A stretch of 64,000 bases of DNA from Prevotella sp. CAG:279 (lineage in GTDB: Bacteria > Actinomycetota > Coriobacteriia > Coriobacteriales > Atopobiaceae): positions 8,040 to 72,039 of the forward strand of contig CAVJWS010000001.1 of NCBI GenBank assembly GCA_963653485.1, in the 5' to 3' direction. Each line of letters opens with the position of its first letter. The first letter of the stretch is position 1. The notes below the pieces were generated by a model that made no database searches, was not told the origin of the DNA, and saw only the letters and a program-made list of their open reading frames with translations. This document shows, in pieces, positions 3,944 to 27,937 of this stretch. Position numbers and translations under genes: made by a program.

Positions 3944-4691
3944 CCTTGGCTCCCCTCACGAAGAGGCCGCTGCGACCGCCGTCCTTCTCGAGCAGGCAGA
4001 CCTCGCTGATGACTATGTCACGCTGGTGGGACTTGCACATGTCGTAGATGGTGAGCGCGGCCGTGCTCGCGGCCACGAGCGCCTCCATCTCCACGCCCGT
4101 CTCGCCCTTGCAGCGGGCCTCGGACTCGATGACGATGCCGTCGGCCTCATAGGAGAAGTTGATGTCGACGCCGCTCAGCGGCACCTGGTGGCACATGGGG
4201 ATGAGTTCGCTCGTGCGCTTGGCGGCCATGATGCCGCCCACCTGGGCCACGGCAAGCACGTCGCCCTTGCGGGTACCGCCGGTCCGCACGAGCTCGAGGG
4301 TGCTGGGCGCCATGAGGACCTTGGCGGACGCCCTGGCCACGCGCGAGGTCACGGGCTTGCCGCCCACGTCCACCATGCGGGCGCGTCCCTGCTCGTTCAC
4401 ATGCGTGAGGTCCGGGTCCCTAAACGAGGGGTTTTCGGCGCTCGTTTGGTCAACGCCGCCCAAAGGGCTGGCCGTATTCGATAGGGCAACGGCAGCGTCA
4501 GGCTCAGCTGCGCTCGAGTGCGCGGCGTCAACCACAGGCTCCGCATCGCCGTCTTGACCAACAACCAAGCGCTCGTAAAGCGCCGAGGTGAAGGCGAGAT
4601 GCTCAGCCTCGAGCTCTGCATCGCCCTCGGTCTCAGGAAGCGAACTCGCAACGGCGTCGCCGGCGATTGTCATATCTAGCTCGTTACTCAT
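3933..4691 (-). CDS. moaC: Cyclic pyranopterin monophosphate synthase MoaC (long acidic N-terminal extension)
   Basis: LTHVNEQGRARMVDV, KGDVLAVAQVGGIMAAKRTSELIPMCH, TGVEMEAL, IYDMCK. Confidence 0.95.
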   Translation of the reverse strand: MSNELDMTIAGDAVASSLPETEGDAELEAEHLAFTSALYERLVVGQDGDAEPVVDAAHSSAAEPDAAVALSNTASPLGGVDQTSAENPSFRDPDLTHVNEQGRARMVDVGGKPVTSRVARASAKVLMAPSTLELVRTGGTRKGDVLAVAQVGGIMAAKRTSELIPMCHQVPLSGVDINFSYEADGIVIESEARCKGETGVEMEALVAASTAALTIYDMCKSHQRDIVISEVCLLEKDGGRSGLFVRGAKDAR

Positions 4692-7537: not shown

Positions 7538-8410
7538 TTAGGCAGTGGCCAGAGGCTTGAAGCCGACTTCCTCAAAGCACTCAGAGGCGACGGAACCCTT
7601 GAGGAACTCGAGGTAGGCCTTGGCGGTGTCCTCGTGCTGGGTGCCCTTGACCACGGCGGCCGGGTAGACGACCTCGCCGCACATGTCCTTGGTGGCGGAG
7701 TCGACGACGTCGAGGCCGGCGGAGACGGCGTCGGTGCGGTAGATGATGCCGCAGTCGACGGCAGCCTCGGAGACCTGCGTGGTGACCTCCTTGACGTTGG
7801 TGCCGTAGGTGATCACGCCAGAGGCGGCCAGGTCGTCCTCGGAGAGCTCGTAGTAGGCGAGGATCTTCTGGGTGTACTGGCCCACGGGCACGTCGGAGTT
7901 GCCCATGGCGAGCTTGACGTCGCCGGCCTTGAGGTGCTCGGCGAGGTCGTCAAAGCTCTTGATGCCGGCCGGGTTGCCCTCGGGCACGACGAGGGTGACC
8001 TCGTTCTGGAGGATGTTGAAGCGGGTGTCGTGCTCGATGAAGTCAAGGCCCTCCTCGTGGTCCTTCTCGGCCTCGGCGTCCAAAGCGTTCATCTGCTTCT
8101 GACCGGCGGAGATGAAGACGTCACACTCGGCGCCCTCCTCGATCTGGGTCTTGAGAGTGCCCGAGGAGTCGTAGTTGAAGGAGACCTCGACGCCGTTCTC
8201 GCTTGTGAAGGTCTCGGTGGCCCTGGTGAGGCTCTCGGTCATGGAGGCAGCGGCGAAGACCGTGATGGTCTCGCTCGCCGCGGCCTCGGTGCTGGCGGCG
8301 GCGGTGTCGGCCGAGGTGGAGCTGCTTGAGCCACCGCAACCAACGAGGCCGAGGCCGGCCAGGGTGACGCCCATGGTGGCGACCGCCTGACGACGGGTGA
8401 TGTTCTGCAT
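7538..8410 (-). CDS. modA: Molybdate ABC transporter substrate-binding lipoprotein
   Basis: Tat-like/lipoprotein signal (TRRQ...LVGC), VFAAASM, DSSGTLKTQIEEGA, VPVGQY, GIIYRTDA. Confidence 0.93.
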   Translation of the reverse strand: MQNITRRQAVATMGVTLAGLGLVGCGGSSSSTSADTAAASTEAAASETITVFAAASMTESLTRATETFTSENGVEVSFNYDSSGTLKTQIEEGAECDVFISAGQKQMNALDAEAEKDHEEGLDFIEHDTRFNILQNEVTLVVPEGNPAGIKSFDDLAEHLKAGDVKLAMGNSDVPVGQYTQKILAYYELSEDDLAASGVITYGTNVKEVTTQVSEAAVDCGIIYRTDAVSAGLDVVDSATKDMCGEVVYPAAVVKGTQHEDTAKAYLEFLKGSVASECFEEVGFKPLATA

Positions 8411-8501: not shown

Positions 8502-8525
8502 CGTTGTATCGCAAAATGCACAACG
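8502..8525. promoter_or_regulatory. ModE-box-like palindrome upstream of modA
   Basis: CGTTGT-N12-ACAACG, same geometry as the CGTTAT-N12-ATAACG ModE operator. Confidence 0.55.
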
Positions 8526-8577: not shown

Positions 8578-9543
8578 CTACAAGCCGCTCGGGCAGCCGT
8601 GAGACGTCTCTCCCCTCTTGGCAGCTCGAACTTGAATCATCTTAGCAGCGATGGAGACCGAAATCTCGGCGGGCGTCACCGCATCGATGGAAAGGCCGAT
8701 CGGAAGGTCGAGCGAGGCGATCTGCTCGGGCGTGGCGCCACGGGAGGCCACGACGCCCTCGAGCACCTTGCGCTTGTGGCGGCTCCCCATGCAGCCGAGG
8801 TAGGCCGGGTGGGAGTCGAAGGCCTGGGCCACGACGTCCTCGTCTGCCACATGGCCGTGGGTCATGACTACGACATAGTCGCGCTCGCCGAGCGTGATGC
8901 CAGCCGCGATGTCCTGGAAGCTGCCGAGGATGACCTTGGCGGCCGCCGGAAAGTTCTCCGCACGCGCAACCTCGGGGCGGTCGTCGAAGACCGTGACCTC
9001 GAAGTCGATGGCGGCAAGGGCGGGCACGAGGGCGCGGCCCACATGGCCGCCGCCGAAGATGACGCAGCGCTCGGCGCCGATGATGGGCTCGTAGAAGACC
9101 TCGTCCGCATAGCCGGGCTGGGCAGCGCCGAAGTCGCACGTGACGGCAACGGGCACCTCGGCGCCCCAGTCAACGCTCGCGGCGCTCGGCTGGCCGGCGT
9201 CAACGAGTTCGAGGCAGGCCTTGTAGGCGGCGAGGTCGGCCTCGCCAAGCAGGCGCACGCCGATGAGCTGCGAGCCGCCGCAGGCGATGTCGACCACCCC
9301 GCGCTTGAACTCGCGACGCACGGGCTCGGCACCCGCGAGCACCTCGCGGCAGAGGGCCTGGGTCTGCAGCTCGGGCGAGCCGCCGCCGACGGTGCCGAGC
9401 AGCGTGCCGTCAGCCAAAAGCAACATGCGCGCGCCGGCGTGGCGGGCGGCGGAGCCGGCCGTGCTGAGCACCACGGCCTCGGCCAGCTGGCGTCCGGCCG
9501 TAAGCTCGCGAACGGCGGCGCGAATGAGAGAGATGCCCTCCAT
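8578..9543 (-). CDS. xdhC: XdhC/CoxI-family molybdenum hydroxylase accessory protein
   Basis: GSAARHAGARM, GTVGGG, IACGG, IFGGGHVG, MTHGHVAD, YLGCMGSR, PIGLSIDAVTPAEISVSI. Confidence 0.92.
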   Translation of the reverse strand: MEGISLIRAAVRELTAGRQLAEAVVLSTAGSAARHAGARMLLLADGTLLGTVGGGSPELQTQALCREVLAGAEPVRREFKRGVVDIACGGSQLIGVRLLGEADLAAYKACLELVDAGQPSAASVDWGAEVPVAVTCDFGAAQPGYADEVFYEPIIGAERCVIFGGGHVGRALVPALAAIDFEVTVFDDRPEVARAENFPAAAKVILGSFQDIAAGITLGERDYVVVMTHGHVADEDVVAQAFDSHPAYLGCMGSRHKRKVLEGVVASRGATPEQIASLDLPIGLSIDAVTPAEISVSIAAKMIQVRAAKRGETSHGCPSGL

Positions 9544-9545
9544 GG

Positions 9546-10340
9546 CTAGCCCTCCAGCCTCTTCGTAAGCTGGCAGATGGCCTCGAGCACGCCCCCGCCA
9601 ACCGCTCGGGCCTTGTCCGAGGAGGTGAAGCAGTGGGAGCGCTCGCAGCGCGGGTCGATGTCGCCTGACTTCATGCCGCTCGTGACCTCGACGCCCTCCT
9701 GCAGAAGGCCCCTCAGCACGCCGTCGATGGTGCAGGTCATAGGCACGCCGGAGACGCGCGCGGCCACCTGGCCGGCACGAACGACGTCACCGATCTGCAG
9801 CACGGGCTCAAAGATGCCGTCTGCCGGGGCACGCAGCACGCGGTCCGCGCTGTGGCCTGCGATGACGCCGGGAATGCCGGTGTTGGGCGCAGCGGGACCA
9901 TCCCAGATGACCTGGCCCAGGTAGTGGCCGCGCTTGGTCTCCACCACGCAGTCGCAGTCCTTGCCGGCCGTGAAGCCAGGGCCGACGCCGATGACATAGG
10001 GCGCCATGGAGCGCCTGGTGCCGAGGTTCTTCTTGGCGAGGATGGCGTCAACCAGGATGGCCGGCTTGAGATCGGCCGCGCTTGCGCCCTCGGGGTCGAC
10101 CAGCACTGCGACCTCTCCGGCCACCACGATGGAGCGCGCCTCGGCGATGGAAGTGGCGAGGCGCGCGGTCACGCCCTCCACCTCGCAAGAGCCCAGGCGA
10201 ATGGCCTCCGAGAAGCTCACGGTGCGACGGATGGAGGTGGGAACGGCCAGGTCGCACATGACGACCTTGAGCCCGGCCCTGTGCAGGCGCAGCGCGATGC
10301 CGGTGGCGATATCGCCCGCTCCCCGAATCTCAACAAGCAT
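9546..10340 (-). CDS. yqeB: Selenium-dependent molybdenum cofactor biosynthesis protein YqeB
   Basis: IRGAGDIATG, IRRTVSF, VDAILAKKNLGT, GPGFTAG, VETKRGHYLG, GDIDPR, SDKARAVGGGVLEA. Confidence 0.93.
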   Translation of the reverse strand: MLVEIRGAGDIATGIALRLHRAGLKVVMCDLAVPTSIRRTVSFSEAIRLGSCEVEGVTARLATSIAEARSIVVAGEVAVLVDPEGASAADLKPAILVDAILAKKNLGTRRSMAPYVIGVGPGFTAGKDCDCVVETKRGHYLGQVIWDGPAAPNTGIPGVIAGHSADRVLRAPADGIFEPVLQIGDVVRAGQVAARVSGVPMTCTIDGVLRGLLQEGVEVTSGMKSGDIDPRCERSHCFTSSDKARAVGGGVLEAICQLTKRLEG

Positions 10341-10399: not shown

Positions 10400-10423
10400 C
10401 GTAGTTGTATTTATAGTACAACG
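10400..10423. promoter_or_regulatory. ModE-box-like palindrome in the yqeB/yqeC divergent promoter
   Basis: CGTAGT-N12-ACAACG (one mismatch to the modA site) in an AT-rich intergenic stretch. Confidence 0.45.
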
Positions 10424-10452: not shown

Positions 10453-11211
10453 ATGAATTGTTTGCAAACTCTCAATCAAACTGTGAACGAGCCGAAAGCA
10501 CCTGCGAACGGGGACGACAAGCGCGCCCTCACCGTGGCGGCCATCGGCAGCGGCGGCAAGACCACCTTCCTGCGAGCCTTGGCGGACGACGCCGTAGCCG
10601 CAGGAAAGACGGCCATCCTTGCAACCACCACGCATTTTCTTCCCTTTGAGGGGATCGAGACGGTAAGCGCCGACAGCGAGTTTGAGGTGGCCAGGCGCCT
10701 TGCCAAGCATCGCGTCATCTGCGCGGCGCAGCCCACGAGCTCCGCAAAGGACGCCGGCAAGCTCGGGCCTTCGCCCGTTGCCATCGAGAGGCTCGCGAAG
10801 CTTCCCGACTACCTGCTCGTCGAGGCCGATGGCTCGCGGCGCCTACCCTTAAAGGCCCACGCCGAGCACGAGCCCGCGGTTCCCGTCTGCGCAGACGCCG
10901 TGGCCCTGATGGTGGGCGCAAGCGGCTTTGGCAAGCCGGCCGCCGAGGCGGCACACCGAAGCGACCTGTTCTGCGAACGCGCGGGCTGCGCGGCCAGCGA
11001 CCCCGTGACGCCCGCCGTCCTCGCGCGCCTCATCATGGCCGAGATGCACGCCGGCATCATCTCGCCCACTCTCATCGTGGTGAACCAGGCCGAGGACGCC
11101 GAGACGCTCGACGCGGCCACCAGACTCAAGTGCGAGCTCACCGACAACGGCGTTGACCTGCCGCTCTTTGCCGGCAGCGTAAGGAGGCACCAGCTCCAGG
11201 CGATCGGTTAG
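10453..11211 (+). CDS. yqeC: Selenium cofactor biosynthesis protein YqeC
   Basis: GSGGKTT, TTTH, LVEADGSRRLPLKAHAEHEP, VVNQAE; divergent from yqeB. Confidence 0.9.
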   Translation: MNCLQTLNQTVNEPKAPANGDDKRALTVAAIGSGGKTTFLRALADDAVAAGKTAILATTTHFLPFEGIETVSADSEFEVARRLAKHRVICAAQPTSSAKDAGKLGPSPVAIERLAKLPDYLLVEADGSRRLPLKAHAEHEPAVPVCADAVALMVGASGFGKPAAEAAHRSDLFCERAGCAASDPVTPAVLARLIMAEMHAGIISPTLIVVNQAEDAETLDAATRLKCELTDNGVDLPLFAGSVRRHQLQAIG

Positions 11212-11402: not shown

Positions 11403-12557
11403 CTACTCCTCGGCCAGCACGCGGATGGCCGAGACGGCAACGGCAATCTCCTCTGGTGTGGTGAACCAGCTGGTGGAGAAGCGTACGGCGCCTTGCTCGC
11501 GTGTGCCCATGGCCTCGTGAATGAGCGGCGCGCAGTGGGCGCCGGGCCTGGTGGCGATGCCCCAACCCTGCATGAGCATGTCCGAGACGTCGGCGGAGGG
11601 GATGTCACCGACATTGAGGCACACGACCCCCGTATGAGGCTCGCCCTCCTCGAGCTCGCCCCAGCTGCCGTAGACCTTCACGCCCTCGACGTCGCGAACG
11701 CCCTCGTAGAGCTGGCGCGCCATGGCGAGCTCGTGCGCCCCCATGGCCTCAGCCCCGCCTTGCTCGGCGATAAAGTCGATGCCGGCGCGCAGGCCCGCCA
11801 ACCCGTGGGCGTTCAGGGTGCCCGCCTCGAGGCGTGTGGGCCAGCCGAGCGGCTGGTTGGGGTCAAAGCTATGGACGCCCGTTCCGCCCACGTTATAGGG
11901 CTCGACGTCAACGCCCTCGGCCACGGCAAGCCCTCCCGTGCCCTGAGGTCCCATCAGGGCCTTGTGCCCCGTGAAGCACACGACGTCAACGCCCTGTTCG
12001 GCCATGTTGATGGGAATTAGGCCGGCGCTTTGTGAGGCATCGACGATGACGCGGGCGCCAACCTCATGGGCGCGCTCGGCCACGCGGCCGACGTCGACGA
12101 CGTCGCCCGTGACGTTGGAGGCCCCCGTCACGGCGACGAGTTTGGTTCCGGGGGCGATGAGCCACAGGAGGTCGTCCATGTCCAGGCGCCCCAGCTCGTC
12201 GCAATCAGCCCTCTCGAGCTTGATGTGACGCTCGGAAACCATGCGGTTGAGCGGCCTCAGAACCGAATTGTGCTCGACCGACGTGGTGACGACGCGGTCG
12301 CCCTCATGCACGAGCCCGCTAATGGCGCAGTTGAGCGCGGCCGTCGAGTTTGGGGCGAAGGCAACGTGGTCAGCGCGCGGGCAGCCGAAGAGCTTGGCCA
12401 CGCGTTCGCGGCACTCGTAGACGACGCGGGCCGCGTCCATGGCGGCGCCAGCCGCTCCCCTACCGGCGTTTCCCACCGAACCCATGGCCTCGACCACGGC
12501 GTCGATGACCGGCTGCGGCTTGTGCATCGTCGTGGCGGCATTGTCGAGATAGATCAC
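11403..12557 (-). CDS. Cysteine desulfurase/selenocysteine lyase-like class V PLP enzyme
   Basis: IYLDNAATT, EHNSV, HxxxVIVDASQSAG, TGHK (PLP Lys), RPGAHCAP, VRFS; GTG start inferred. Confidence 0.9.
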   Translation of the reverse strand: MIYLDNAATTMHKPQPVIDAVVEAMGSVGNAGRGAAGAAMDAARVVYECRERVAKLFGCPRADHVAFAPNSTAALNCAISGLVHEGDRVVTTSVEHNSVLRPLNRMVSERHIKLERADCDELGRLDMDDLLWLIAPGTKLVAVTGASNVTGDVVDVGRVAERAHEVGARVIVDASQSAGLIPINMAEQGVDVVCFTGHKALMGPQGTGGLAVAEGVDVEPYNVGGTGVHSFDPNQPLGWPTRLEAGTLNAHGLAGLRAGIDFIAEQGGAEAMGAHELAMARQLYEGVRDVEGVKVYGSWGELEEGEPHTGVVCLNVGDIPSADVSDMLMQGWGIATRPGAHCAPLIHEAMGTREQGAVRFSTSWFTTPEEIAVAVSAIRVLAEE

Positions 12558-12627
12558 GCGTCCCCCGTCCATATTCGAGGGGGCGTCGCGGTGGCGGCAC
12601 CCCCTCGAAAAGAATAATCCTTCAGGC

Positions 12628-12882
12628 CTATTTAACGAACTCGAGCATTTCAATGACCGAGAAAGCCTCGACGGCCACCCCGGCCCGGGAGAACGCCTGC
12701 TCAAGCTCCTCGCGCTGGGCTGGCTCGGCCTTCCAGGCAAGACCGCAACCGGCAGAGATTTCGCCGGGAACGGGAATCATGCGGCCGGGCAGGCCCTCCT
12801 TGGCGCAGAGTTCCTCGCAGCTCATGGCGGCGGCCGTGGAGGGGAAGGTCACCACGAGCGCGGGCTTGCGGACGCGCGGCAC
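12628..12882 (-). CDS. DUF3343 small Cys-containing protein
   Basis: VTFPSTAAAM...RMIPVPGEISAGCGLAW; GTG start overlaps the yedF stop. Confidence 0.85.
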   Translation of the reverse strand: MPRVRKPALVVTFPSTAAAMSCEELCAKEGLPGRMIPVPGEISAGCGLAWKAEPAQREELEQAFSRAGVAVEAFSVIEMLEFVK

Positions 12883-13505
12883 TACGGCCTCACGACCACC
12901 GAGGCGCCAGAGAGCTTCTGGGCGATGACGTACATGTTCGTGACCTCGCCCACGGCAAGCTTGTCGGAGATGCCGTAGAAGTCGGTGCAGGTTCCGCAGG
13001 TGAGGATCTCTACGCCGGCGTCGGCGAGGTTCTTGAGGTCCTCGAGCGAGTCGGAGCCCTCGCAGGTGAGGAAGGCGCCGCCGTTGTAGAACAGGATGGT
13101 CTGGGGCAGATCGTCGAGCTGGGTGAGCGAGAAGATGAAGGCCTTCATGAGCTTCTTGCCGAGCGCGTCGTCGCCCGCGCCCATCACGCCGGCGCTGATC
13201 TGCACCACGACGTTCTTCTTGGCCGGCACGTAGCACTCGGCGGCCTCGGGCTCGCCGGCGGCGACCTCAACGGCCTCGCTGGCCACCGTGTGGGTGTGCC
13301 ATTCCTTCTCGGCCGTCTGCTCGCTCGTGAACTCACAGCCCTTGGAGGCGGCCATGCGGCTCAGGTTCTCGACGGCGATCTTGTTGTCCACGACGGTCTC
13401 GACCTCGCCGGGGCCGCCAAGCGTCCCGAGCGCCTTGAGCGTCTTCACCACCGGCAGCGGGCAGGCGTCTCCGCGGGCGTCGATGAGGAGCTTGTTTTCT
13501 GACAT
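12882..13505 (-). CDS. yedF: Sulfurtransferase-like selenium metabolism protein YedF (TusA + DsrE-like domains)
   Basis: IDARGDACPLPVV (TusA CPxP), MGAGDDALGKKLM, FYNGG, ILTCGTCTDFY, VGEVTNMY. Confidence 0.92.
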   Translation of the reverse strand: MSENKLLIDARGDACPLPVVKTLKALGTLGGPGEVETVVDNKIAVENLSRMAASKGCEFTSEQTAEKEWHTHTVASEAVEVAAGEPEAAECYVPAKKNVVVQISAGVMGAGDDALGKKLMKAFIFSLTQLDDLPQTILFYNGGAFLTCEGSDSLEDLKNLADAGVEILTCGTCTDFYGISDKLAVGEVTNMYVIAQKLSGASVVVRP

Positions 13506-13517
13506 ATGAGCTTCCTT

Positions 13518-13581
13518 TCTTCTGGAATTCTCTTCGGAATTCTCTTCTGGAATTCTCTTCTGGAATTCTTTTCGATAATTC
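13518..13581. repeat. Tandem array of a 13-bp unit TCTTCTGGAATTC (3 perfect copies, one with a 1-nt deletion, one degenerate)
   Basis: Units at 13518, 13531, 13543, 13556 and 13569, read directly from the sequence just upstream of the yedF RBS. Confidence 0.85.
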
Positions 13582-13614
13582 TGAACGAGCTTGTTGCGCT
13601 TACGAACCTGCGGG

Positions 13615-13727
13615 GCGGAAGGTCTTGGGTATGGCCTTGCAGACGTCCTCGCGATGACCTGCTGCCTACGAAGTGCGAGCTTGGGCGCTGCGGAATGTCT
13701 GCTGCGGCTATACCCAAGACCTTCCGC
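13615..13727. repeat. Long hairpin with 18-bp perfect terminal inverted repeat
   Basis: GCGGAAGGTCTTGGGTAT (13615-13632) / ATACCCAAGACCTTCCGC (13710-13727), with further inner pairing GCAGAC/GTCTGC. Confidence 0.8.
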
Positions 13728-13876
13728 TTACGGAGTTCTAATTCGGCGACTGGTCGTTGAGTTTGAGTTTGAGCTTGAGCATGATTTTGCACTCCGGCAT
13801 TTCAGAAAAATTGGGGGGGGGACCTGTTCAACCTGCGGGGCTATCGCCGGTTGTAAGGCTTACTGGAATCGGGCGG

Positions 13877-14920
13877 CTACATGTTGACCACTACCGAGGC
13901 CTCTTGCTTCTTCGTTATCCGGCCAACTATGTTGGCCGGATGGTCCAAGGACCGGAGTATTTCTACGTAGGCTTCAGCCTGCGCCGCAGGAAGGGCCACG
14001 AGGAGGCCACCGGAGGTTTGGGGGTCGAAGAGGACGTCGGTGAGGTCCAGCGGCACGTCTTCCGAGATTTGCACCCTGGGCCCGAAGAAGTCTCGGTTGC
14101 GGTAGGCGCCGGCGGGGATGAGGCCCATCTGGGCCATCTCGCGCGCCTGGGGCATAACGGGAACGGCGCTTGCGTTGAGCTCAACGGTGAGGCCGCTGGC
14201 CTCGGCCATCTCGCAGGAGTGGCCGAGCAGCGAGAAGCCCGTGACGTCGGTGGCGGCGTGGGCCTCAAAGCCATCCAGGGCCTCGGCGGCGTACTTGTTG
14301 AGGTGAATCATCGAGTCTGTGGCCACCTTCACGCCGGCGTCATCAAGCAGGCCCGCCTTGTGGGCCGTGGTGAGCACGCCGGTGCCGAGGGCCTTGGAGA
14401 GCACCAGCGCGTCGGCCTCGCGGGCGGTGCCGTTGGCCAGCAGGTGGCTGAGGTCCACGAAGCCCGTCACGGCAAGGCCGAACTTGGGCTCGCGGTCGTT
14501 GATGGAGTGGCCGCCAGCCACGATGACGCCGGCCTCGCGGCACTTGTCGGCGCCGCCCGCCAGGACCTGGCCGGCCACCTCGATGCCCAGGCAGTTGGGG
14601 AAGCACAGCAGGTTGAGGGCGAGCGCGGGGCGACCTCCCATGGCCCAGACGTCCGAGAGGGCGTTGGCGGCGGCCACCTGGCCAAAGAGGAAGGGGTCGT
14701 CCACCATGGGCGGGAAGAAGTCGGTGGTGCCCACCAAACCGCGGCCGTCACCCAGGTCATAGACGTAGGCGTCGTCCGAGGAGTCAAAGCCTACGAGGAG
14801 ACGCTCGTCGCTCAGTCGGGGAAGCTCAGAGAGCACCTGCGAGAGGTATCCGGGCGCAAGCTTGGCGGCGCATCCGGCCGCCTCAACGAGCTCGGTGAGC
14901 TTCACTCCGGTCATGTCCAT
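13877..14920 (-). CDS. selD: Selenide, water dikinase SelD (Cys-type)
   Basis: KLTELVEAAGCAAK (TGC codon), DDAYVY, TTDFFPPMVDDP, ANALSDVWAMGG, GGHSI, TDVTGFSLLGH, DPQTSGGLL. Confidence 0.96.
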   Translation of the reverse strand: MDMTGVKLTELVEAAGCAAKLAPGYLSQVLSELPRLSDERLLVGFDSSDDAYVYDLGDGRGLVGTTDFFPPMVDDPFLFGQVAAANALSDVWAMGGRPALALNLLCFPNCLGIEVAGQVLAGGADKCREAGVIVAGGHSINDREPKFGLAVTGFVDLSHLLANGTAREADALVLSKALGTGVLTTAHKAGLLDDAGVKVATDSMIHLNKYAAEALDGFEAHAATDVTGFSLLGHSCEMAEASGLTVELNASAVPVMPQAREMAQMGLIPAGAYRNRDFFGPRVQISEDVPLDLTDVLFDPQTSGGLLVALPAAQAEAYVEILRSLDHPANIVGRITKKQEASVVVNM

Positions 14921-14944
14921 GCTGGAAATCCCTTCTACCTGCGC

Positions 14945-15712
14945 TTACTTGAGCTCGAGCGCCTTAAGCGCGGCGCCGAGGGCACCGGCGAAGCGGGCCT
15001 CGGGGCAGCTCGACACAGACGCGCCGAGCTTGGCGCCAAGACGCTCGACAAAATAGGCGTTCTCGCAGAGGCCGCCGGTGAGGAAGTACGGCTCTCCGCT
15101 GCCCTGGCCGGCGAGCGAGGCCACGCGGGAGACCACGCTCTCGATGATGCCGTGGGCGATGTTCTCGCGACGCTCTCCCCTGCCCACGAGGCTGATGACC
15201 TCGCTTTCGGCGAAGACGGTGCACATGCTGGAGATGGTGATGCCGCCGCCCGCCGCGGCCAGGCGCGCCAGCTCTTCCTGGGAGACGCCGAGCTTGTCGG
15301 CTATGACCTCAAGAAAACGGCCCGTACCTGCGGCGCATTTGTCGTTCATGGCGAACTTGGCCACGCGTCCGGCACGCAGCTGGATGACCTTGGTGTCCTG
15401 GCCGCCCACGTCGACGACCGTGCCCTCGGCGCCAAACAGCCTCACGGCGCCGACGCCGTGGCAGGTGATCTCGGTCACGACCTTGTTGGCGTACGGCACC
15501 GAAACGCGACCGTAGCCCGTGGCCACCACGCGTGTGCCCTCGTCGCCCACGTCGACGCCAGCCGCCGCCAGCGCCTCCTTGGCGCGCTCGGCGGCATCCA
15601 CGCTTGAGAAGCCCGTCGGCATGGCTTGCTCCATCAGAACCTTGCCGCCGGCCCCCAGCGCCACGACCTTGGTCGCGGTGGAGCCGATGTCAATGCCGAC
15701 GCCTATCGCCAT
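14945..15712 (-). CDS. ASKHA-type [4Fe-4S] activase (HgdC/YjiL family, double-cubane reductase partner)
   Basis: GIDIGSTATK, ATGYGR, TEITCHG, DVGGQDTK, MNDKCAAGTGRFLE, MCTVFAESEV. Confidence 0.93.
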   Translation of the reverse strand: MAIGVGIDIGSTATKVVALGAGGKVLMEQAMPTGFSSVDAAERAKEALAAAGVDVGDEGTRVVATGYGRVSVPYANKVVTEITCHGVGAVRLFGAEGTVVDVGGQDTKVIQLRAGRVAKFAMNDKCAAGTGRFLEVIADKLGVSQEELARLAAAGGGITISSMCTVFAESEVISLVGRGERRENIAHGIIESVVSRVASLAGQGSGEPYFLTGGLCENAYFVERLGAKLGASVSSCPEARFAGALGAALKALELK

Positions 15713-15731
15713 CTTCCTCGTTCCCCCAGCC

Positions 15732-16892
15732 CTACAGCGTCTCGATAAAGGCCGCGATGCGGGTGTCGATCTGGCCCTGGTCGCCCGCGCTGTAGTCGGT
15801 CTCGATCTTCATGTACGGGATGCCCGCGCCCTCGACGGCCGCCTGCATCTTGGCACTCTCGACGTTGAAGGTGTGGCAGGCGGTGAGCACGCTCTCCACC
15901 ACGCCGTCCACATGGTACTTCTCGCACATGGCAAGCGTGTTGTCCATGCGGCCCTCGTTGGGCGTCATGACCGAGCAGTTAATCTCCAGATAGCGGTCGG
16001 CGATGGCACCGAGGATGTCGTCGGCGTCCTCGTCGATCATCATGCGCGCCGTGCGCTCGCCCGAGCAGTCATCCATGCAGACGACGGTGCCGCCGTTTTC
16101 CTCGATGGTCTTGCCAATCTTGTTGATGACGCCGCCGACCGGGCAGCCCGTGATGAGGATACGCTTGGCGTCTTCGCCGATGGGACGCTCGCCGGCCTCG
16201 TAGGCGGCCTTGCGGGCGTCCACCGTCTGCTCGATCTGGCAGGCGAAGTTGTCCATGTCGAAGTTGAAGGTGCCGGCGAACATCGTGCTCATAAGCTCGA
16301 CGCCGCCCATCACGGGAGGCTGCTGGACCTGCAGCTCAAACATGGAGACCTGTGCTGCGCGCAGGCGGTTGCGACGGCGCACCGCGGCGCGCAGGTCGTC
16401 ATCGGTGATGGTGATGCCGTAGAGCTCCTCCAGGCGCTCCTTCAGAAGGCGGCACTCCTCGCGCCAGCCGGCGCGCTCGTACTCGCGGTCGCGGCTCTGG
16501 GGCAGGTGCAGGATGTGCGTGGGCTTGAGGTCTGCGAGCAGCTCGTACATCTTCTTCTTGCCGTCGCAGGTGGTCTCGCCGATGATGAGGTCGCTGAAGT
16601 AGGTGAAGGGGCACTTCTGCGAGTAGGCAAAGCCGTAGGTGGACTTGATGAGCGGGCAGAGGTTGGCCGGCAGCACCTTTTCGGCCTCGGGGATCACCTC
16701 GTCCGAGGTGCCGCAGAGCCCCACCGCGGAGGCGCCGGCGGCGTCCACTATCTCGAGCGGGGTGTAGCTGCACAGAAAGCCGACGAGCCTGTTGCCCGCC
16801 TGCTTGAAGTCCTTCACGCGGATGAAGGCCGCCTTGCGCTGCTCGTTGAACTCCTCGAACGTGCGCGGCAGCTGCTGCTCTGTGTCGCCCAT
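15732..16892 (-). CDS. Double-cubane-cluster anaerobic reductase (DCCP/YjiM; 2-hydroxyacyl-CoA dehydratase fold)
   Basis: [81 protein letters not shown]...TRIAAF. Confidence 0.88.
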
Positions 16893-16927
16893 GGCAATGC
16901 TCCCCTGCTAGATTCCCCGAATATGAC

Positions 16928-16965
16928 AACGGTGGGCCCAGGCTCCCCGGCCCGGGCCCACCGTT
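16928..16965. terminator. Intra-operon hairpin after the SBP gene (mRNA stabiliser or partial terminator)
   Basis: AACGGTGGGCCC-N14-GGGCCCACCGTT; no U-tract. Confidence 0.5.
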
Positions 16966-16975
16966 CCCCTATAGC

Positions 16976-18070
16976 TTAGGCCTCGTCGCCCAGGACCGGC
17001 GCCCAGACCTTGCCGAGGATGGTGTCGGCGTCGTCGGTGGAGTCGATGATGCCGTACTCCTTGTAGTCCTCGATGATGGACTTGAGTGCGGTGCTCGTCC
17101 TCTCCTCGGACATGTCGTAGTTGAAGTCCTGGATGATCTCGAGCGCGGCCTGCTTGTCGCCGGATGCCCAGTTGTTCTCGAACATGAGGTCGAGGGCCTC
17201 GGACTTGTTCTCGTTGATCCAGAGGCTCGCCTTGCGGAAGGCGCGGGTGAACTTCTTGGCCGTCACGGGGTTCTCGGAGAAGAAGTCGGAGTTGAAGGCC
17301 AGGATGCAGCAGGGCTCCTTCTGGTAGTCCTCGTCAAAGGTGAGCGAGCGGACCACGCGCAGGGTGCCGTCGTCCACGAAGGACTTGGCGAACTGGTCGG
17401 AAAGCACGGCACCGTCGATCTCGCCGTTCTGCAGGGCCTGGACCACGGCGTCGGTGCTCACGACCTTCCAGTCGATGGTGTTGACGTCCACGCCATCGTG
17501 GCCGAGGAAGCGCATGGCGATGTTCTGGTCGGAGTTGCCCACGCCGTCGGGAATGGCCACGGCCTTGCCGGCGAGGTCGGAGGTGCTCTTGTTGTCGGAG
17601 CTCGCGAGGACGTAGAGGCCCTTGCAGCCAGACTGGCAGCCGACAGTGAAGGTCATCTTCACGCCGTTGATGGAAGGCACGAGCAGGGTGGCGATGTGGT
17701 CGCCGGCGGCCTGGACCTTGGCGGTGCCGAGGCCGTCGGAGGCGCTCGTCATCGAGACGATCTCCACGTCGAGGCCCTCGTCCTCATAGTAGCCGCCGAC
17801 CTTGGCGATGCCGAAGGCGCCGAGGCAGACGCCGCCGTTGTAGCCGGCCTGGATGGTCTTGCCATAGAAGGGCTCCTTCTCCCAGGCGGCCTGCTCCTCC
17901 TCGGCGGTCATGTCCTTGACCTCCTTGGTGATCTCCTCGGCGGCACCGGCGGTGGAGGCGGAAGAGTCGCTGACCTGGCTGCCGCAGCCCGCGAGGCCGA
18001 GGCCGGCGAACACGGCGCCGGCGCCCATGAGCTCAATGAAGTTGCGGCGGGAGATGTTGTTCTGGGACAT
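16976..18070 (-). CDS. NitT/TauT (SsuA/NMT1-like) ABC substrate-binding lipoprotein, Cys-rich
   Basis: Tat lipoprotein signal SRRNF...LAGC; GYYEDEGLDVE; motifs GGVC, GCQSGC, EPCC. Confidence 0.85.
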   Translation of the reverse strand: MSQNNISRRNFIELMGAGAVFAGLGLAGCGSQVSDSSASTAGAAEEITKEVKDMTAEEEQAAWEKEPFYGKTIQAGYNGGVCLGAFGIAKVGGYYEDEGLDVEIVSMTSASDGLGTAKVQAAGDHIATLLVPSINGVKMTFTVGCQSGCKGLYVLASSDNKSTSDLAGKAVAIPDGVGNSDQNIAMRFLGHDGVDVNTIDWKVVSTDAVVQALQNGEIDGAVLSDQFAKSFVDDGTLRVVRSLTFDEDYQKEPCCILAFNSDFFSENPVTAKKFTRAFRKASLWINENKSEALDLMFENNWASGDKQAALEIIQDFNYDMSEERTSTALKSIIEDYKEYGIIDSTDDADTILGKVWAPVLGDEA

Positions 18071-18109
18071 GTCTTTCCTTTCTGGGAACTTATGCTGAGC
18101 CCGCGCAGA

Positions 18110-18859
18110 CTAGCGGGCCTTGGAACCAAAGTGGAGGGTGTCGAGCACGTGGGAGCGAAGCTCGAAGAAGCGCTCCGAGGTCCTCACGCGCGGATAGGGC
18201 AGGTCGACCTCGATGCGCTCGACGATGCGCCCGGGGCGCGGCGCCATCACGAGCACCGAGCCGCCCATGTAGATGGCCTCGTCCACGTCGTGGGTGACCA
18301 TGACCATGGTGGACCCGAGGCGTTGCCACATGGAGAGGATCTCGTCCTGCATGTTCATGCGCGTGAAGGCGTCGAGCGCGCCAAGCGGCTCGTCGAGCAG
18401 GAAGACCTCGGGCTCCATCACCATCGTGCGCACGAGCGCGGCGCGCTGCGCCATGCCGCCGGAGAGCTGGTGGGGGTAGGAGTCCTTGAACTCCAGCAGT
18501 CCGGCCATCTCGAGCAGGGCCTTGACCCGCTCGGGGTCAACCGAGCCCGTGAGCTTGGGCCCAAAGGAGACGTTCTGCTCAATCGTGAGCCAGGGGAAGA
18601 GCGTGGGCTTCTGGAAGGCCACGCCGCGCTCCGGCCCCGGGCCCTCGATGGGCGTGCCGTCGAGGACGGCCGTGCCCGTGGTCGGCTTGGTGAGGCCCGC
18701 GATGACGCGCAGCAGCGTGGACTTGCCGCAGCCCGAGGGGCCCACCACGCTCACGAACTCGCCGTGCTCGATGGTGAGGCTGATGGGGGCCAGCGCCTGG
18801 GTGACACCGCCGTCGGGGGTGGCGAAGCTCTTGGAGACGCAGGAAAGCTCGAGGGCCAT
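18110..18859 (-). CDS. NitT/TauT-family ABC ATP-binding protein
   Basis: GPSGCGKST, LFPWLTIEQNV, LSGGMAQR, LLDEPLGALDAFTR, VTHDVDEA. Confidence 0.93.
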   Translation of the reverse strand: MALELSCVSKSFATPDGGVTQALAPISLTIEHGEFVSVVGPSGCGKSTLLRVIAGLTKPTTGTAVLDGTPIEGPGPERGVAFQKPTLFPWLTIEQNVSFGPKLTGSVDPERVKALLEMAGLLEFKDSYPHQLSGGMAQRAALVRTMVMEPEVFLLDEPLGALDAFTRMNMQDEILSMWQRLGSTMVMVTHDVDEAIYMGGSVLVMAPRPGRIVERIEVDLPYPRVRTSERFFELRSHVLDTLHFGSKAR

Positions 18860-18860
18860 G

Positions 18861-20012
18861 CTACTCACCCAGCCCTTCGCGCCAACGCAGGACGTGGGCG
18901 GCGATGCGCTTGAGCGCAAAGTTCACGGCGACGAAGATGAGGCAGATGATGACGATGGCGGCATACATCTTGCCGTAGAGCGCCCAGGACTTCTGCCAGG
19001 TGATATACCAGCCAAGGCCGCTCTCCACGCCGATCATCTCGGCCACGAGAAGCGCGGTGCACGCCGAGCTCATGGCCTGCGTCATGCCCTGGAAGATGGA
19101 GGGCAGGGCAGACGGGATGGCGACCTTGACCACGAGCTGCGGCGTGCGGGCGCCCAGCGTGCGTGCGGCCTCGTAGAGTGCCGGGTCGATGTTCCTGATG
19201 CCGGTGGCCGTGGCGATGGTCACGCTGAACCACACGCCCAGGGCGATGATGAAGACGGCGCCGGAGAACAGCGATGCCGCAAGCACCATCACCACCGGAA
19301 TCCACGTGGTGGAGGGAATGGCGCCGAGCACCTTGAGGAAGGGGTCGACCCAGTAGGAGACGCGCTTGCTGTAGCCGCAGGCGATACCCGTGAGCAGGCC
19401 GAGAACCACGCCGGTGAAGTAGCCGGTGAAGAGCAGCTTGAGGGAGTTCTGGATGCAGTCGAGCAGATAGTCCGCATCCCCTATCGCGGCGTTGAGGATC
19501 TGGTCCACCCAAGGGAAGTACGGCAGGGGGAGCCGCCCGGTCTTCACCGTCAGCACGTCATAGGCCAGGAAGAGGGCGAAGACGAGCGTGAGGAAGGGCG
19601 CGCGGTAGCGCACGGCCTCAGAGGCGCGCTCGCTCACGAACGTGGCCACAAAGGCCACGAAGGCTCCGGCGGTAAGGGCTCCCATGAAGTAGACGTAGGT
19701 CCAGGTGATGGTGTTGCCGGAGACGTTGGGCACATAGAGGTATTCGAGGATGGCCGCGACGCCCACCAACGTGGGCAGCAAACATACCGCGGCGTCAGCC
19801 AAGCGCTGGGCCGCCGTGCGCTGGCCGCGCTCCATGCGACGTAGCTCGTCGCCGGAGGAAGGAACGTCGCCCTTGTCCTGCTCTGCACAGAGAGGCTCGC
19901 TGCCGGTCATGGGCGATCCGGGATTGTAAGATTCGCTCCGAAAAGCCTCGCCAGCAGACGTTATCGGCGGCCTAGTGCCACCACCAGTTTCCATAGTTGC
20001 TTCTGATGCCAT
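18861..20012 (-). CDS. NitT/TauT-family ABC permease with extra N-terminal TM segments (start could be 19835)
   Basis: EAA loop LYEAARTLGA, PSALPSIFQG, LVAEMIGVESGLGWYI. Confidence 0.88.
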   Translation of the reverse strand: MASEATMETGGGTRPPITSAGEAFRSESYNPGSPMTGSEPLCAEQDKGDVPSSGDELRRMERGQRTAAQRLADAAVCLLPTLVGVAAILEYLYVPNVSGNTITWTYVYFMGALTAGAFVAFVATFVSERASEAVRYRAPFLTLVFALFLAYDVLTVKTGRLPLPYFPWVDQILNAAIGDADYLLDCIQNSLKLLFTGYFTGVVLGLLTGIACGYSKRVSYWVDPFLKVLGAIPSTTWIPVVMVLAASLFSGAVFIIALGVWFSVTIATATGIRNIDPALYEAARTLGARTPQLVVKVAIPSALPSIFQGMTQAMSSACTALLVAEMIGVESGLGWYITWQKSWALYGKMYAAIVIICLIFVAVNFALKRIAAHVLRWREGLGE

Positions 20013-20054: not shown

Positions 20055-20163
20055 AATTAGTTATTATCTCTGACTAATTTTTATCGAACGTTGTAGTTTT
20101 TCGCAAATAGCGGTCTGCGAGCGGTTTTATGCCCTGATTTCGTTGTTGCGAAAATACACAACG
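20055..20163. promoter_or_regulatory. Divergent promoter region with several palindromes
   Basis: AATTAGT-N11-ACTAATT (20055-20079); CGTTGT-N12-ATAGCG (20089-20112); CGTTGT-N11-ACAACG (20141-20163). Confidence 0.5.
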
Positions 20164-21442: not shown

Positions 21443-21534
21443 CCAATCACTAGGCCCCTTGCCGATCTCACGTTGCCAGGCAAAGGGGCATTGAGCCCTG
21501 CTCGGGTAGCTCGCCAGGCCCCTCGCAAGTCTCC

Positions 21535-21682
21535 CGTTGCCAGGCCAAGGGCGTTGCGTCTGGCTCGGGCAGTCCTGCGCTCGCACGGAAGTGACATTAA
21601 GTCACTTCCGGCTCATGCGGAATCTCGCCAGCCACAACACCCTTGGCCTGGCTCTGTTCGCAAACCTTGGTTGCAAAGGCGA
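21535..21682 (+). repeat. ~150-bp structured dispersed repeat, copy 1 (REP/MITE-like)
   Basis: Near-identical reverse complement at 22729-22877; outer stem GCCAGGCCAAGGG/CCCTTGGCCTGGC; inner hairpin CGGAAGTGAC-ATTAA-GTCACTTCCG. Confidence 0.88.
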
Positions 21683-22728: not shown

Positions 22729-22877
22729 TCGCCTTTGCAACCAAGGGATGCAAACAGAAGACAGGCCAAGGGTGTTGTGGCTGGCGAGATTCCGCATGAG
22801 CCGAAGGTGACTTAATGTCACCTTCGTGCGAGCGCAGGACTGCCCGAGCCGGACGCAACGCCCTTGGCCTGGCAACG
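22729..22877 (-). repeat. ~150-bp structured dispersed repeat, copy 2 (inverted relative to copy 1)
   Basis: Reverse complement of 21535-21682; inner hairpin CGAAGGTGAC-TTAAT-GTCACCTTCG at 22802-22826. Confidence 0.88.
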
Positions 22878-22957
22878 TGAAGCTCGCAACAAGAGGGGTC
22901 GCAAGCCTCAATGGTCCACCCAGTAAGCATGCGCTCGCAGCAACGCCCTCGCCATGG

Positions 22958-26728: not shown

Positions 26729-27937
26729 CTACTTGAGAAGCGCGAGCACGCCGCGGACGAGGCGCTCGAAGTCGTCCTCGTGGCTGTGGGCCACCTCGAG
26801 CACGCTCTCGTGCGTGACGCCCGCCTCGCCGGCCATGTTGGCGGCCAGGGTGAGGCCGAGCACGTTCATGCCGAGCGCGTGGGCCATGATGGTCTCGCAG
26901 ACGAGCGACATGCCGGCAAAGGAGCAGCCGAGCGCACCGAGGGCGGCGACCTCCGCGGCCGTCTCGAAGCTGGGGCCGAGCAGGCCCGCGTAGACGCCCT
27001 CCTGGAGCTCAATGCCCTCGTCGGCGGCAACGCCCACGGCAAGCTCGCGCAGGTAGGGCGTGTAGGCGTCGGTCATGCCGACGAAGGGCGTGTCCACATA
27101 GGCCAGGTCCTCGGCCTCGAGCAGGGGGTTGGTGCCGGTGAGGTTGATGTGGTCGGTGATGAGGCCCAGGCCCATGTGGGCGCGGCCGGAGATGGCGCCG
27201 GTGGCGCAGGCGAAGATGATGTCCTTGCAGCCGAGCTTGTGGGCATGGCGTACCAGAGAGCTCACCTGGGCGGCATTGAAGCCCTGGTAGAGGTGGACGC
27301 GGCCGGGATAGACCACGACCGGCACGCCGTCGAGCGAGCCAACGGTGACCTCAAAGGTGTGGCCGGCAATGGGGCGGGCCGCCATGGGAAAGCCCTCGAT
27401 CTCGTCATACGGGATGCGGCGAACCGGCTTGACCAGGCCCGCAAGCTTGCCCAGGCCGCTGCCGAGCACGATGGCGACGGGGTGCTCGACGCTGGCACGG
27501 CAGTCCTCAACAACCTTCTCGTCTACCACGACGATTCCCTCCTTCCGAAGGGCGGCGGCCGCAATGCCTTCGCCCCTCACGAGCGTATGCGTATGCGTTC
27601 CATCGTAGACAAACGAGCTGCCGCACGCAGGGCTCTTCGCCTTAAGGACGGCGAGCGGCGCCGCGGCCCCGCGCGCCCGAGAAAGTGCTAGGGCGGCCCC
27701 TCGCTCGTAGAACTCAGTGACGTCGGCGCCTTGCTCAGTGAGCACCCGGCCGCCAAGAACCTCCGCAGGGGGTCGGGGAATCCCAAGGCCCCCGTCGACC
27801 TCCGGGCATACGTCGATGACCGAGCCTCCCCTAGCCCTCACGTCCTGCGCAAGGGCCTGCACGCAACAAGAAGGGCGAGCGCGGCCGTCATAGCGGCAAC
27901 GCTCGCCCAAAAGGCATCTGCTGACGAGAATGTTCAT
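26729..27937 (-). CDS. Fusion: DUF523 (TudS/thiouracil desulfidase family) + trimeric-type purine nucleoside phosphorylase
   Basis: N-terminal VSRCLLGERCRYDG, CPEVDGGLGIPRPP, LKAKSPACG; C-terminal IVLGSGLG, GRVHLYQG, DHINLTGTNPL, GPSFET, GMS, ANMAG, HESVL; one uninterrupted ORF. Confidence 0.9.
   Translation of the reverse strand: MNILVSRCLLGERCRYDGRARPSCCVQALAQDVRARGGSVIDVCPEVDGGLGIPRPPAEVLGGRVLTEQGADVTEFYERGAALALSRARGAAAPLAVLKAKSPACGSSFVYDGTHTHTLVRGEGIAAAALRKEGIVVVDEKVVEDCRASVEHPVAIVLGSGLGKLAGLVKPVRRIPYDEIEGFPMAARPIAGHTFEVTVGSLDGVPVVVYPGRVHLYQGFNAAQVSSLVRHAHKLGCKDIIFACATGAISGRAHMGLGLITDHINLTGTNPLLEAEDLAYVDTPFVGMTDAYTPYLRELAVGVAADEGIELQEGVYAGLLGPSFETAAEVAALGALGCSFAGMSLVCETIMAHALGMNVLGLTLAANMAGEAGVTHESVLEVAHSHEDDFERLVRGVLALLK

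Follow-up and report, generated by a model that had tools for sequence, protein, structure and literature searches.

We analyzed a run of nine co-directional genes on the minus strand at positions 11403–20012 of a 64,000-nucleotide stretch of DNA (the window; positions 8,040 to 72,039 of contig CAVJWS010000001.1, assembly GCA_963653485.1, labeled Prevotella sp. CAG:279 and placed by GTDB in the Atopobiaceae, class Coriobacteriia). The run joins an ATP-binding cassette (ABC) importer to a double-cubane cluster protein (DCCP), its ATP-dependent activase, and a set of selenium genes headed by selD. Named relatives of the encoded proteins likewise indicate an Atopobiaceae source. The DCCP–selenium core is known; the new elements are a predicted ModE-like regulon and an unnamed ABC importer family that has four conserved cysteines and recurrently pairs with DCCP. 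The explanation that we favor from the sequence evidence, tentatively and at somewhat less than an even chance, is an accessory salvage of an organic selenium or sulfur compound in which DCCP would reductively release selenide for SelD.

All nine minus-strand open reading frames (ORFs) of the initial annotation were found again with family matches, and the five gaps from the permease to selD (1, 39, 83, 19, and 24 nt) proved exact. The operon begins with an SsuC/SaoP-like ABC permease (18861–20012; PF00528; NF040733 at 100.3 bits against a cut-off of 295; no in-frame TGA), an SsuB/SaoA-like ABC ATPase (18110–18859; NF040729 at 246.2 against 360), and a lipoprotein binding subunit of the SsuA/ThiY fold (16976–18070; NMT1; SaoX at 60.9 against 300). 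These genes are followed by a DCCP of the short, YjiM-like class II form (15732–16892; NF040772 at 488.9 against 350), an ASKHA-type ATP-dependent activase of the DCCP-R/YjiL type (14945–15712; TIGR00241 at 222.5 against 125.4), and the selenophosphate synthetase SelD in its Cys17 form (13877–14920; TIGR00476 at 379.5 against 125; no TGA). The last three genes encode YedF with TusA and DsrE domains (12882–13505; TIGR03527 at 210.5 against 110), a DUF3343 putative Se/S carrier (12628–12882; PF11823; Cys46 invariant in the alignment), and a cysteine desulfurase/selenocysteine lyase-like pyridoxal phosphate enzyme (11403–12572, starting at ATG 12572 or GTG 12557; TIGR01977 at 383.1 against 377). 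The distances between yedF and the DUF3343 gene and between the latter and the desulfurase gene are −1 and 55 nt. The selenocysteine lyase SclA was rejected as an assignment for the desulfurase (NF040779 at 307.2 against a cut-off of 525).

By its hidden Markov model (HMM) score, cysteine motif, and adjacent activase, the reductase is a true member of the double-cubane family. Cys41, Cys60, Cys79, Cys109, Cys276, Cys306, and Cys339 all align with cysteines of the Carboxydothermus hydrogenoformans DCCP (PDB 6ENO) and are invariant in 20/20 DCCPs. The Cys276–Cys306 spacing of 29 is slightly below the printed 32–34, and a strict seven-cysteine regular expression, which missed 7/20 DCCPs, E. coli YjiM among them, was not used for classification. 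Like the C. hydrogenoformans DCCP/DCCP-R pair (PDB 6ENO and 7YYL), the protein matches NF040772, carries the seven motif cysteines, and is adjacent to an activase (TIGR00241), here 19 nt downstream; unlike 6ENO, it is a class II short form that lacks ~35 extra N-terminal residues, which close the channel in 6ENO. It is 46% identical to E. coli YjiM, and tblastn revealed no second homologue in the source genome.

The accessible texts of PMC7317905 and PMC11971306 (2025) call the physiological function of DCCP unknown and assign YjiM and other short forms to a class that may accept larger substrates; the former proposes CoA esters or larger substrates for them. The initial annotation had set a double-cubane enzyme against an ordinary 2-hydroxyacyl-CoA dehydratase, and the scores side with the former, NF040772 lying far above its cut-off and HadC reaching only 93.9 against 700. 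2-Hydroxyacyl-CoA dehydratase and benzoyl-CoA reductase were likewise rejected as candidate identities, given the single gene, the HadC score, and a BzdN score of 70.5 against 453.8. A role in ordinary fermentation as a CoA-ester dehydratase or reductase appears highly improbable: the superfamily (PF06050) is the same and a CoA ester might fit into the short form, but there is no alpha/beta pair, the operon contains no CoA-transferase or acyl-CoA dehydrogenase gene, and DCCP shows a strict dependence on selD.

The importer, judged by sequence, is an unnamed ABC family distinct from SaoXPA. SaoX, SaoP, and SaoA were the best NCBIfam matches of the three subunits and were rejected as assignments, all three scoring below cut-off when compared with the SAO-cassette HMMs. 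In the binding protein, Cys82, Cys149, Cys254, and Cys255 are invariant in 54/54 close homologues. These cysteines are kept in nearly all full-length distant representatives, and in 8/8 members of a set that includes proteobacterial and spirochaete proteins at 21–25% identity. The earlier description of the importer as Cys-rich therefore holds for these four invariant residues and not for overall composition, as the binding protein has only 6 Cys in 364 residues. Its structural model (pLDDT 89.4) gave ThiY, Thi5, and SsuA as the best Foldseek matches at 13–19% identity, and its ESM Atlas matches were generic NMT1 clusters only. The binding-protein family comprises 245 representatives at E 1e-10; at E 1e-45, no NCBIfam model was matched by any of 94 distant relatives, and no relatives were found in viral contigs. 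Permease Cys318 is present in 52/52 close relatives and is not invariant in distant members, and its codon is not TGA. In SAO importers the permease gate carries Sec or Cys (Sec210 in SaoP). Across 74 loci, a search for in-frame TGA at conserved Cys positions of the binding protein or permease yielded stops at unconserved places or on error-rich contigs only.

Pairing of this importer with DCCP recurs. The 74 importer loci recovered from metagenomes form 19 informative clusters at 75% identity, and DCCP adjoins the importer in 10 of the 74, or 4 of the 19 clusters. In a single 20-row tree, the DCCPs adjoining the importer, which are short forms, are scattered instead of grouping together, suggesting repeated pairing. 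The DCCP-adjacent importers are from anaerobes of several separate lineages, whereas distant family members are mostly from aerobes. Among Atopobiaceae there are eight copies including the source, three of which show the full order importer–DCCP–activase–selD (the source genome, G011, and G249). The G249 copy lies in another genus and at another chromosomal place, and there the order extends through yedF and the DUF3343 gene, so the linkage is not confined to one genome.

The position upstream of DCCP is a variable slot. Where 3 kb of upstream sequence is available (73 loci), the occupant is a long DCCP in 49, an Opp-type importer in 19, another SsuA-type importer in 3, and other genes in 2; the four-Cys binding protein occurs in 0/80 mostly Collinsella loci. 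An M20 gene directly precedes DCCP in the congeners G002, G008, and G013, and in G010 the slot is taken by a second, long DCCP. In G009 an Opp importer sits between DCCP and selD, and in G021 the four-Cys importer copy lies between two DCCPs. The importer was found in 0/150 genomes of the class with a single-sequence query and in 7/250 genomes of the family with a profile, and all eight importer-carrying genomes have DCCP and selD. The initial annotation treated the importer as a fixed part of the pathway; its absence from the congeners' operons and from 80/80 loci, together with the tie of its family to DCCP and sulfur genes rather than selD, marks it as accessory. Recent horizontal arrival was considered and rejected, as there is no codon signal (GC3 of 0.85–0.96, like the neighbors). 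In two decayed copies (L215:3086–3961 in G003 and L258:9263–10240 in G299), in-frame deletions fuse the ATPase or permease to the binding protein.

Rarity, the many other contexts of the family, and the decayed copies in G003 and G299 would be expected of a passenger that sits behind the permease promoter with a function unrelated to DCCP or selD. We consider this very unlikely, because the importer adjoins unrelated short DCCPs in separate lineages, its order is identical in two genera at different chromosomal places, and the displaced copy in G003 has its own pair of the regulatory boxes described below.

The genes downstream of the importer form a conserved core. Among the best 80 of 598 matches, which are nearly all from Collinsella and show depth rather than breadth, the activase, selD, yedF, DUF3343, and desulfurase genes are all present in 54/54 loci with at least 6 kb downstream. 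The core from DCCP to the desulfurase is conserved across Coriobacteriia. We also surveyed co-occurrence in 151 Coriobacteriia genomes, whose kinship means that they are not independent. DCCP occurs in 65, and selD in all 65 of these; 55 of the 120 selD genomes lack DCCP, and 31 genomes have neither gene. DCCP is therefore never found without selD, as the proposed linkage would have it, and the frequent presence of selD without DCCP is the pattern of an accessory upstream step. Sorted by selenium user, the 65 DCCP genomes have selA only (40), selA and yqeB (17), yqeB only (7), or neither (1). Because 40/65 carry selA without yqeB, the module is not YqeBC-specific, and the delivery of selenium specifically to YqeBC/XdhC proposed by the initial annotation is not borne out; the DCCP module accompanies selenium use in general.

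The same constancy could have another cause. DCCP may itself consume selenium, with SelD, YedF, DUF3343, and the desulfurase building or repairing a Se-bridged (8Fe-8S-Se) cluster while the importer brings an unrelated, perhaps organosulfur, substrate. The invariable company of selD (65/65 here; 955/970 high-scoring double-cubane proteins in selD genomes in the accessible text of Haft and Gwadz 2022, bioRxiv 10.1101/2022.07.06.499078) fits such a requirement equally well. The importer, moreover, follows DCCP and not selD, and DUF3343 is the tightest partner, present also in the yjiM-yjiL-ytiA genes of E. coli K-12, where YtiA is the DUF3343 protein. A selenium-consuming DCCP should, however, occur with selD in genomes without another selenium user, and the 151 genomes include no convincing case. 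The single candidate, G115, has a selD containing TGA and for this reason probably has an unassembled selA. Recombinant DCCP also works with an all-sulfur cluster, according to the accessible text of PMC7317905. We regard the selenium-consuming explanation as unlikely, although it is a serious contender.

The DCCP–selenium link on which the initial annotation builds has already been published. In the accessible part of their preprint, Haft and Gwadz consider selenium processing more likely than a Se-bridged cofactor, which they name as a formal explanation, and they report that DCCPs adjoin the Cys/Sec-rich SAO importer in 21/52 species. For Slackia heliotrinireducens, a member of the same class, Table 1 of Lin et al. 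2015 (PMC5322559) shows these core genes side by side, including a "hydroxyglutaryl-CoA dehydratase subunit" and its activase; unlike the present operon, the Slackia table has entries for YedE and LysR but none for an ABC importer, and the accessible text gives the dehydratase-like gene no role. Kountz and Balskus (PMC10418091), in the accessible text, link a dicubane protein provisionally to selenium and describe "dicubane" genes as accessory in type 1 mlp clusters. Those methyl-selenide salvage clusters share the logic of selenium salvage with our operon, which differs in having no corrinoid protein, Mlp, or RACE gene. The E. coli YjiM-YjiL-YtiA system resembles the core in its nearby DUF3343 gene; selD and an importer are part of the operon here, and neither is present in the 16-kb E. 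coli region. The SAO locus, as described in the available text of Haft and Gwadz, likewise has an SsuABC-type importer whose Cys/CC-containing binding protein adjoins DCCP. The differences are in the cysteine positions (82/149/254/255 here and 50/192/224/225 in SaoX), the presence of selD within the operon here, and the lack here of selenocysteine in the importer and of a selA match in the genome. The saoB, saoL, saoE, saoC, saoT, and saoD models had no match among 18 region proteins scanned. Our literature search, which left subscription papers mostly outside its reach, found no paper on the four-Cys importer family or the ModE-like regulon, and the supplements of the Haft preprint may list such neighbors.

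Conserved palindromes suggest how the operon is controlled. Two ModE-like boxes precede the permease gene: a distal palindrome of the CGTTRT-N11/12-AYAACG type (20141–20163), which at 23.0 bits is the genome's best site, and a proximal box ~76 nt before the permease start (20089–20112; 20.1 bits), identified from the upstream-region alignment. Further boxes lie in the divergent yqeC/yqeB spacer (10400–10423; 21.0 bits) and before modA (8502–8525; 21.8 bits), which is followed by modBC, moaA, moaC, MOSC, and moeA-like genes. Boxes also precede xdhA, ssnA, and a xanthine permease gene. The matrix was trained on orthologous sites of other genomes. Since the four sites on contig C1 have orthologues in the training set, the boxes before xdhA, ssnA, and the xanthine permease gene are the only ones predicted independently. 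Nine sites in the genome score 17 bits or more, compared with 2–4 in shuffles; for two of the nine (C48:4813 and C10:10856) no link is evident. Counts of the exact pattern in five genomes are 7, 3, 3, 0, and 1, and a reversed control gives 0; the boxes match the core of the 24-bp ModE consensus printed in the accessible text of PMC2700814. A ModE-type helix-turn-helix domain fused to a MobA/MocA-like nucleotidyltransferase (G000:C33, L229:829–1803, minus strand, also L228 and L230; 52.2 against the ModE cut-off of 98.5) is a candidate for regulating the box and may also sense molybdenum cofactor nucleotides. It is encoded between a carbamate kinase gene and a hydantoinase-like gene in a purine-catabolism cluster.

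The tandem box pair is also found before the congeners' importer-less DCCP operon, before G009's differently built operon, and before the displaced importer of G003. Its presence in importer-less congeners indicates that the box belongs to the DCCP operon, and its sharing across these operons offers the strongest support for our prediction that the DCCP, activase, and selD genes are transcribed from the permease promoter. A scan for sigma-70 consensus promoters gave 0 sites against 0.8 expected, and an Rfam search of window positions 4000–30000 gave zero matches. A GC-rich hairpin between the binding protein and DCCP genes (16921–16972; 23-nt arms, 83% complementary, no T run) could be an mRNA stabilizer or a weak terminator. 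The selD–yedF spacer (13506–13876) is enlarged to 371 nt, compared with ~30–130 nt in congeners as measured from tblastn match ends. It contains a 22-nt inverted repeat and four 13-nt tandem repeats at 53% GC, making read-through from selD into yedF less certain. About 330 nt of it are insert-like, being absent from the congeners' spacers and weakly matched on contigs C13, C104, and C78, and the spacer is probably an inserted repeat element.

Boxes held in common with modA raise a further alternative, in which the importer takes up a soft metal, a metalloid, or a thiometallate such as thiomolybdate, to be used in maturing molybdo-enzymes or in organometallic chemistry of the SAO kind. Thiomolybdate is a usable molybdenum source whose transporters may be unknown, according to the accessible text of PMC11484787. 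The Cys/CC pocket is like that of SaoX, which the available text of Haft and Gwadz reads as metal-binding, and neighbors of the importer include DUF4418 and FtsX-type exporter genes (9 and 14 of 75 loci), an arsenosugar cluster (2 loci), and moaC-like genes. Yet the congeners have the same box pair without the importer, 4/8 family copies have no box, and the aerobic members lie beside desulfuration enzymes. We therefore assign metal import a low probability.

Several side observations concern the surroundings of the importer family. The DUF4418 gene and the FtsX/MacB-type ABC exporter flank the importer repeatedly (L123, L126, L134, L138, L144, L147, L161, L187, L188, and L259), so that importer and exporter are paired as in the SAO design. 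The arsenosugar biosynthesis cluster (ArsS, TIGR04169, and TIGR04283) adjoins the importer in L124 and L130. In L182, L192, and L193, the importer lies upstream of a cytochrome c552 gene with c-type maturation genes, and an unnamed radical SAM gene, mostly divergent, stands beside the importer in several genomes where no box precedes it (L028:6653–7639, L257:5812–6795, and L130:12584–13606). A gene pair encoding a C-GCAxxG-C-C protein and an SLAC1/TDT channel recurs inside DCCP operons and in a four-Cys importer locus (L030:6725–8361, L101:11205–12748, and L128:11040–12507). YedF is 87–89% identical to copies outside the sampled congeners (L255 and L039) and 77–79% identical to those of congeners, which hints at cassette exchange between genera.

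The selenium consumer of the source genome is, from its gene content, the labile-selenium molybdenum hydroxylase system. YqeC (10453–11211, plus strand; TIGR03172 at 147.8 against 73.05) is encoded separately and convergently with the desulfurase gene, and yqeB lies with an XdhC-family gene at 8578–10340 on the minus strand (TIGR03309 at 356.9 against 220; Pfam XdhC domains). The yqeB-xdhC-mod-moa genes form a unit separate from the nine-gene run. Contig C24 carries a TIGR03311 Se-dependent xanthine dehydrogenase gene with xdhA, ygfK, and ssnA; no match to selA or selU was found in the 91% complete assembly. With selD, yqeB, yqeC, and the Se-dependent hydroxylase all present, the trait proposed by the initial annotation is in place, and all of its markers (SelD, YqeB, YqeC, TIGR03311, YgfK, and SsnA) are found here; DCCP and the importer, in contrast, are not required parts of it.

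We infer each chemical step of the favored salvage route from the observed gene identities, gene order, co-occurrence, and boxes. The operon would respond to switching of the molybdenum/purine regulon and supply selenium while the molybdenum-dependent purine pathway is on. The importer would capture a small thiophilic organic selenium or sulfur compound (a selenol or thiol, a di-chalcogenide, or a seleno- or thioether) through a putative cysteine pocket, and DCCP, energized by its ATP-hydrolyzing activase, would reductively cleave a C–Se or Se–Se bond to give selenide. SelD would convert selenide to selenophosphate, while YedF, DUF3343, and the desulfurase-like lyase may carry selenium or recover it from selenocysteine. 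The end user here would be the labile-selenium cofactor of xanthine dehydrogenase via YqeB/C and XdhC. In other Coriobacteriia the same module would feed selenocysteine synthesis, and the optional importer would only broaden the usable selenium sources. As a whole, the pathway of the initial annotation stays plausible and its linkage is conserved, but its core was already in print, its importer is optional, and the release of selenide is only inferred.

Several observations weigh against this salvage route. No DCCP is in view in 64/74 metagenome importer loci, and selD, yedF, DUF3343, and desulfurase genes occur in 0/74. Four of the eight Atopobiaceae importer copies are not next to DCCP, and two of these four have decayed through deletions. 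The box suggests molybdenum rather than selenium sensing. As 10/34 yqeB genomes lack DCCP, it is not needed for the labile-selenium cofactor. The CoA esters or larger substrates proposed for short DCCPs in the accessible text of PMC7317905 and the Se-bridged cofactor kept as a formal alternative in that of Haft and Gwadz count on the same side. So do the annotated distant contexts, which are of sulfur and not selenium. In five of these, chosen from plasmid matches and with enzyme matches below family cut-offs, four contain sulfur assimilation genes: SfnB-like and SsuD-like enzymes with a serine acetyltransferase in Paracoccus, SfnB-like and SsuD-like enzymes in Bradyrhizobium, a CysK-like enzyme in Pantoea, and CysK-like, MetB-like, PatB, and Rrf2 proteins in Treponema. 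The Azospirillum context shows nothing clear. The importer family thus follows DCCP and chalcogen-stripping enzymes rather than selD, and its sulfur-gene neighbors also count in favor of the salvage route.

These contexts, and the missing selenium genes at the 74 loci, would also fit an anaerobic organosulfur desulfuration unit in which importer and DCCP yield sulfide, as a reductive counterpart of the SfnB/SsuD monooxygenases, and adjacency to selD reflects shared carriers or regulation. The DCCP of G027, which sits with a PatB C–S lyase gene and amino-acid importers, points the same way. This possibility nonetheless leaves the constant selD company of DCCP unexplained, and the operon contains no cysK- or metB-type gene; the fold and cysteine pocket cannot discriminate between sulfur and selenium. 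We hold it to be distinctly unlikely. A broader scheme, which we find rather doubtful, would have the four-Cys ABC family capture organic chalcogens that aerobes strip with flavin monooxygenases and anaerobes with DCCP as an ATP-driven C–Se/C–S lyase that needs no oxygen; in the source genome, a ModE-MocA fusion regulator would tie it to the supply of labile selenium for purine-degrading molybdo-enzymes.

Outside the operon, the window encodes a 2-thiouracil desulfurase (DUF523) fused to a purine nucleoside phosphorylase domain (26729–27937, minus strand); in G010, an ORF of this kind is found close to an exact box (L240). A dispersed element of ~150 bp has inverted copies, 93% identical, at ~21530–21680 and ~22730–22880 flanking an MTA/SAH nucleosidase gene, and at least five other contigs carry partial copies. 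Downstream of a molybdenum hydroxylase gene and a PatB lyase gene elsewhere in the source genome (L220:564–2166, G000:C45) are five small ORFs of 80–109 aa. Most of their products have Cys pairs and an N-terminus like that of a leader peptide, and we take them to resemble bacteriocin or ribosomally synthesized peptide (RiPP) precursors.

The published selenium link of DCCP is a correlation only, and E. coli also has a DCCP. Because the binding protein is soluble and recurrently paired with DCCP, the identity of its ligand offers a direct route to the natural substrate of DCCP, and the predicted regulon indicates that purine and molybdenum conditions are when to look. Were the ligand a sulfur compound or a metal, an unnamed transporter family of 245 representatives would still gain a function. 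If the salvage route is true, DCCP/YjiM would gain a physiological reaction, a new reductive C–Se/C–S cleavage, and a dedicated organoselenium importer would be defined, explaining how gut anaerobes obtain organic selenium.

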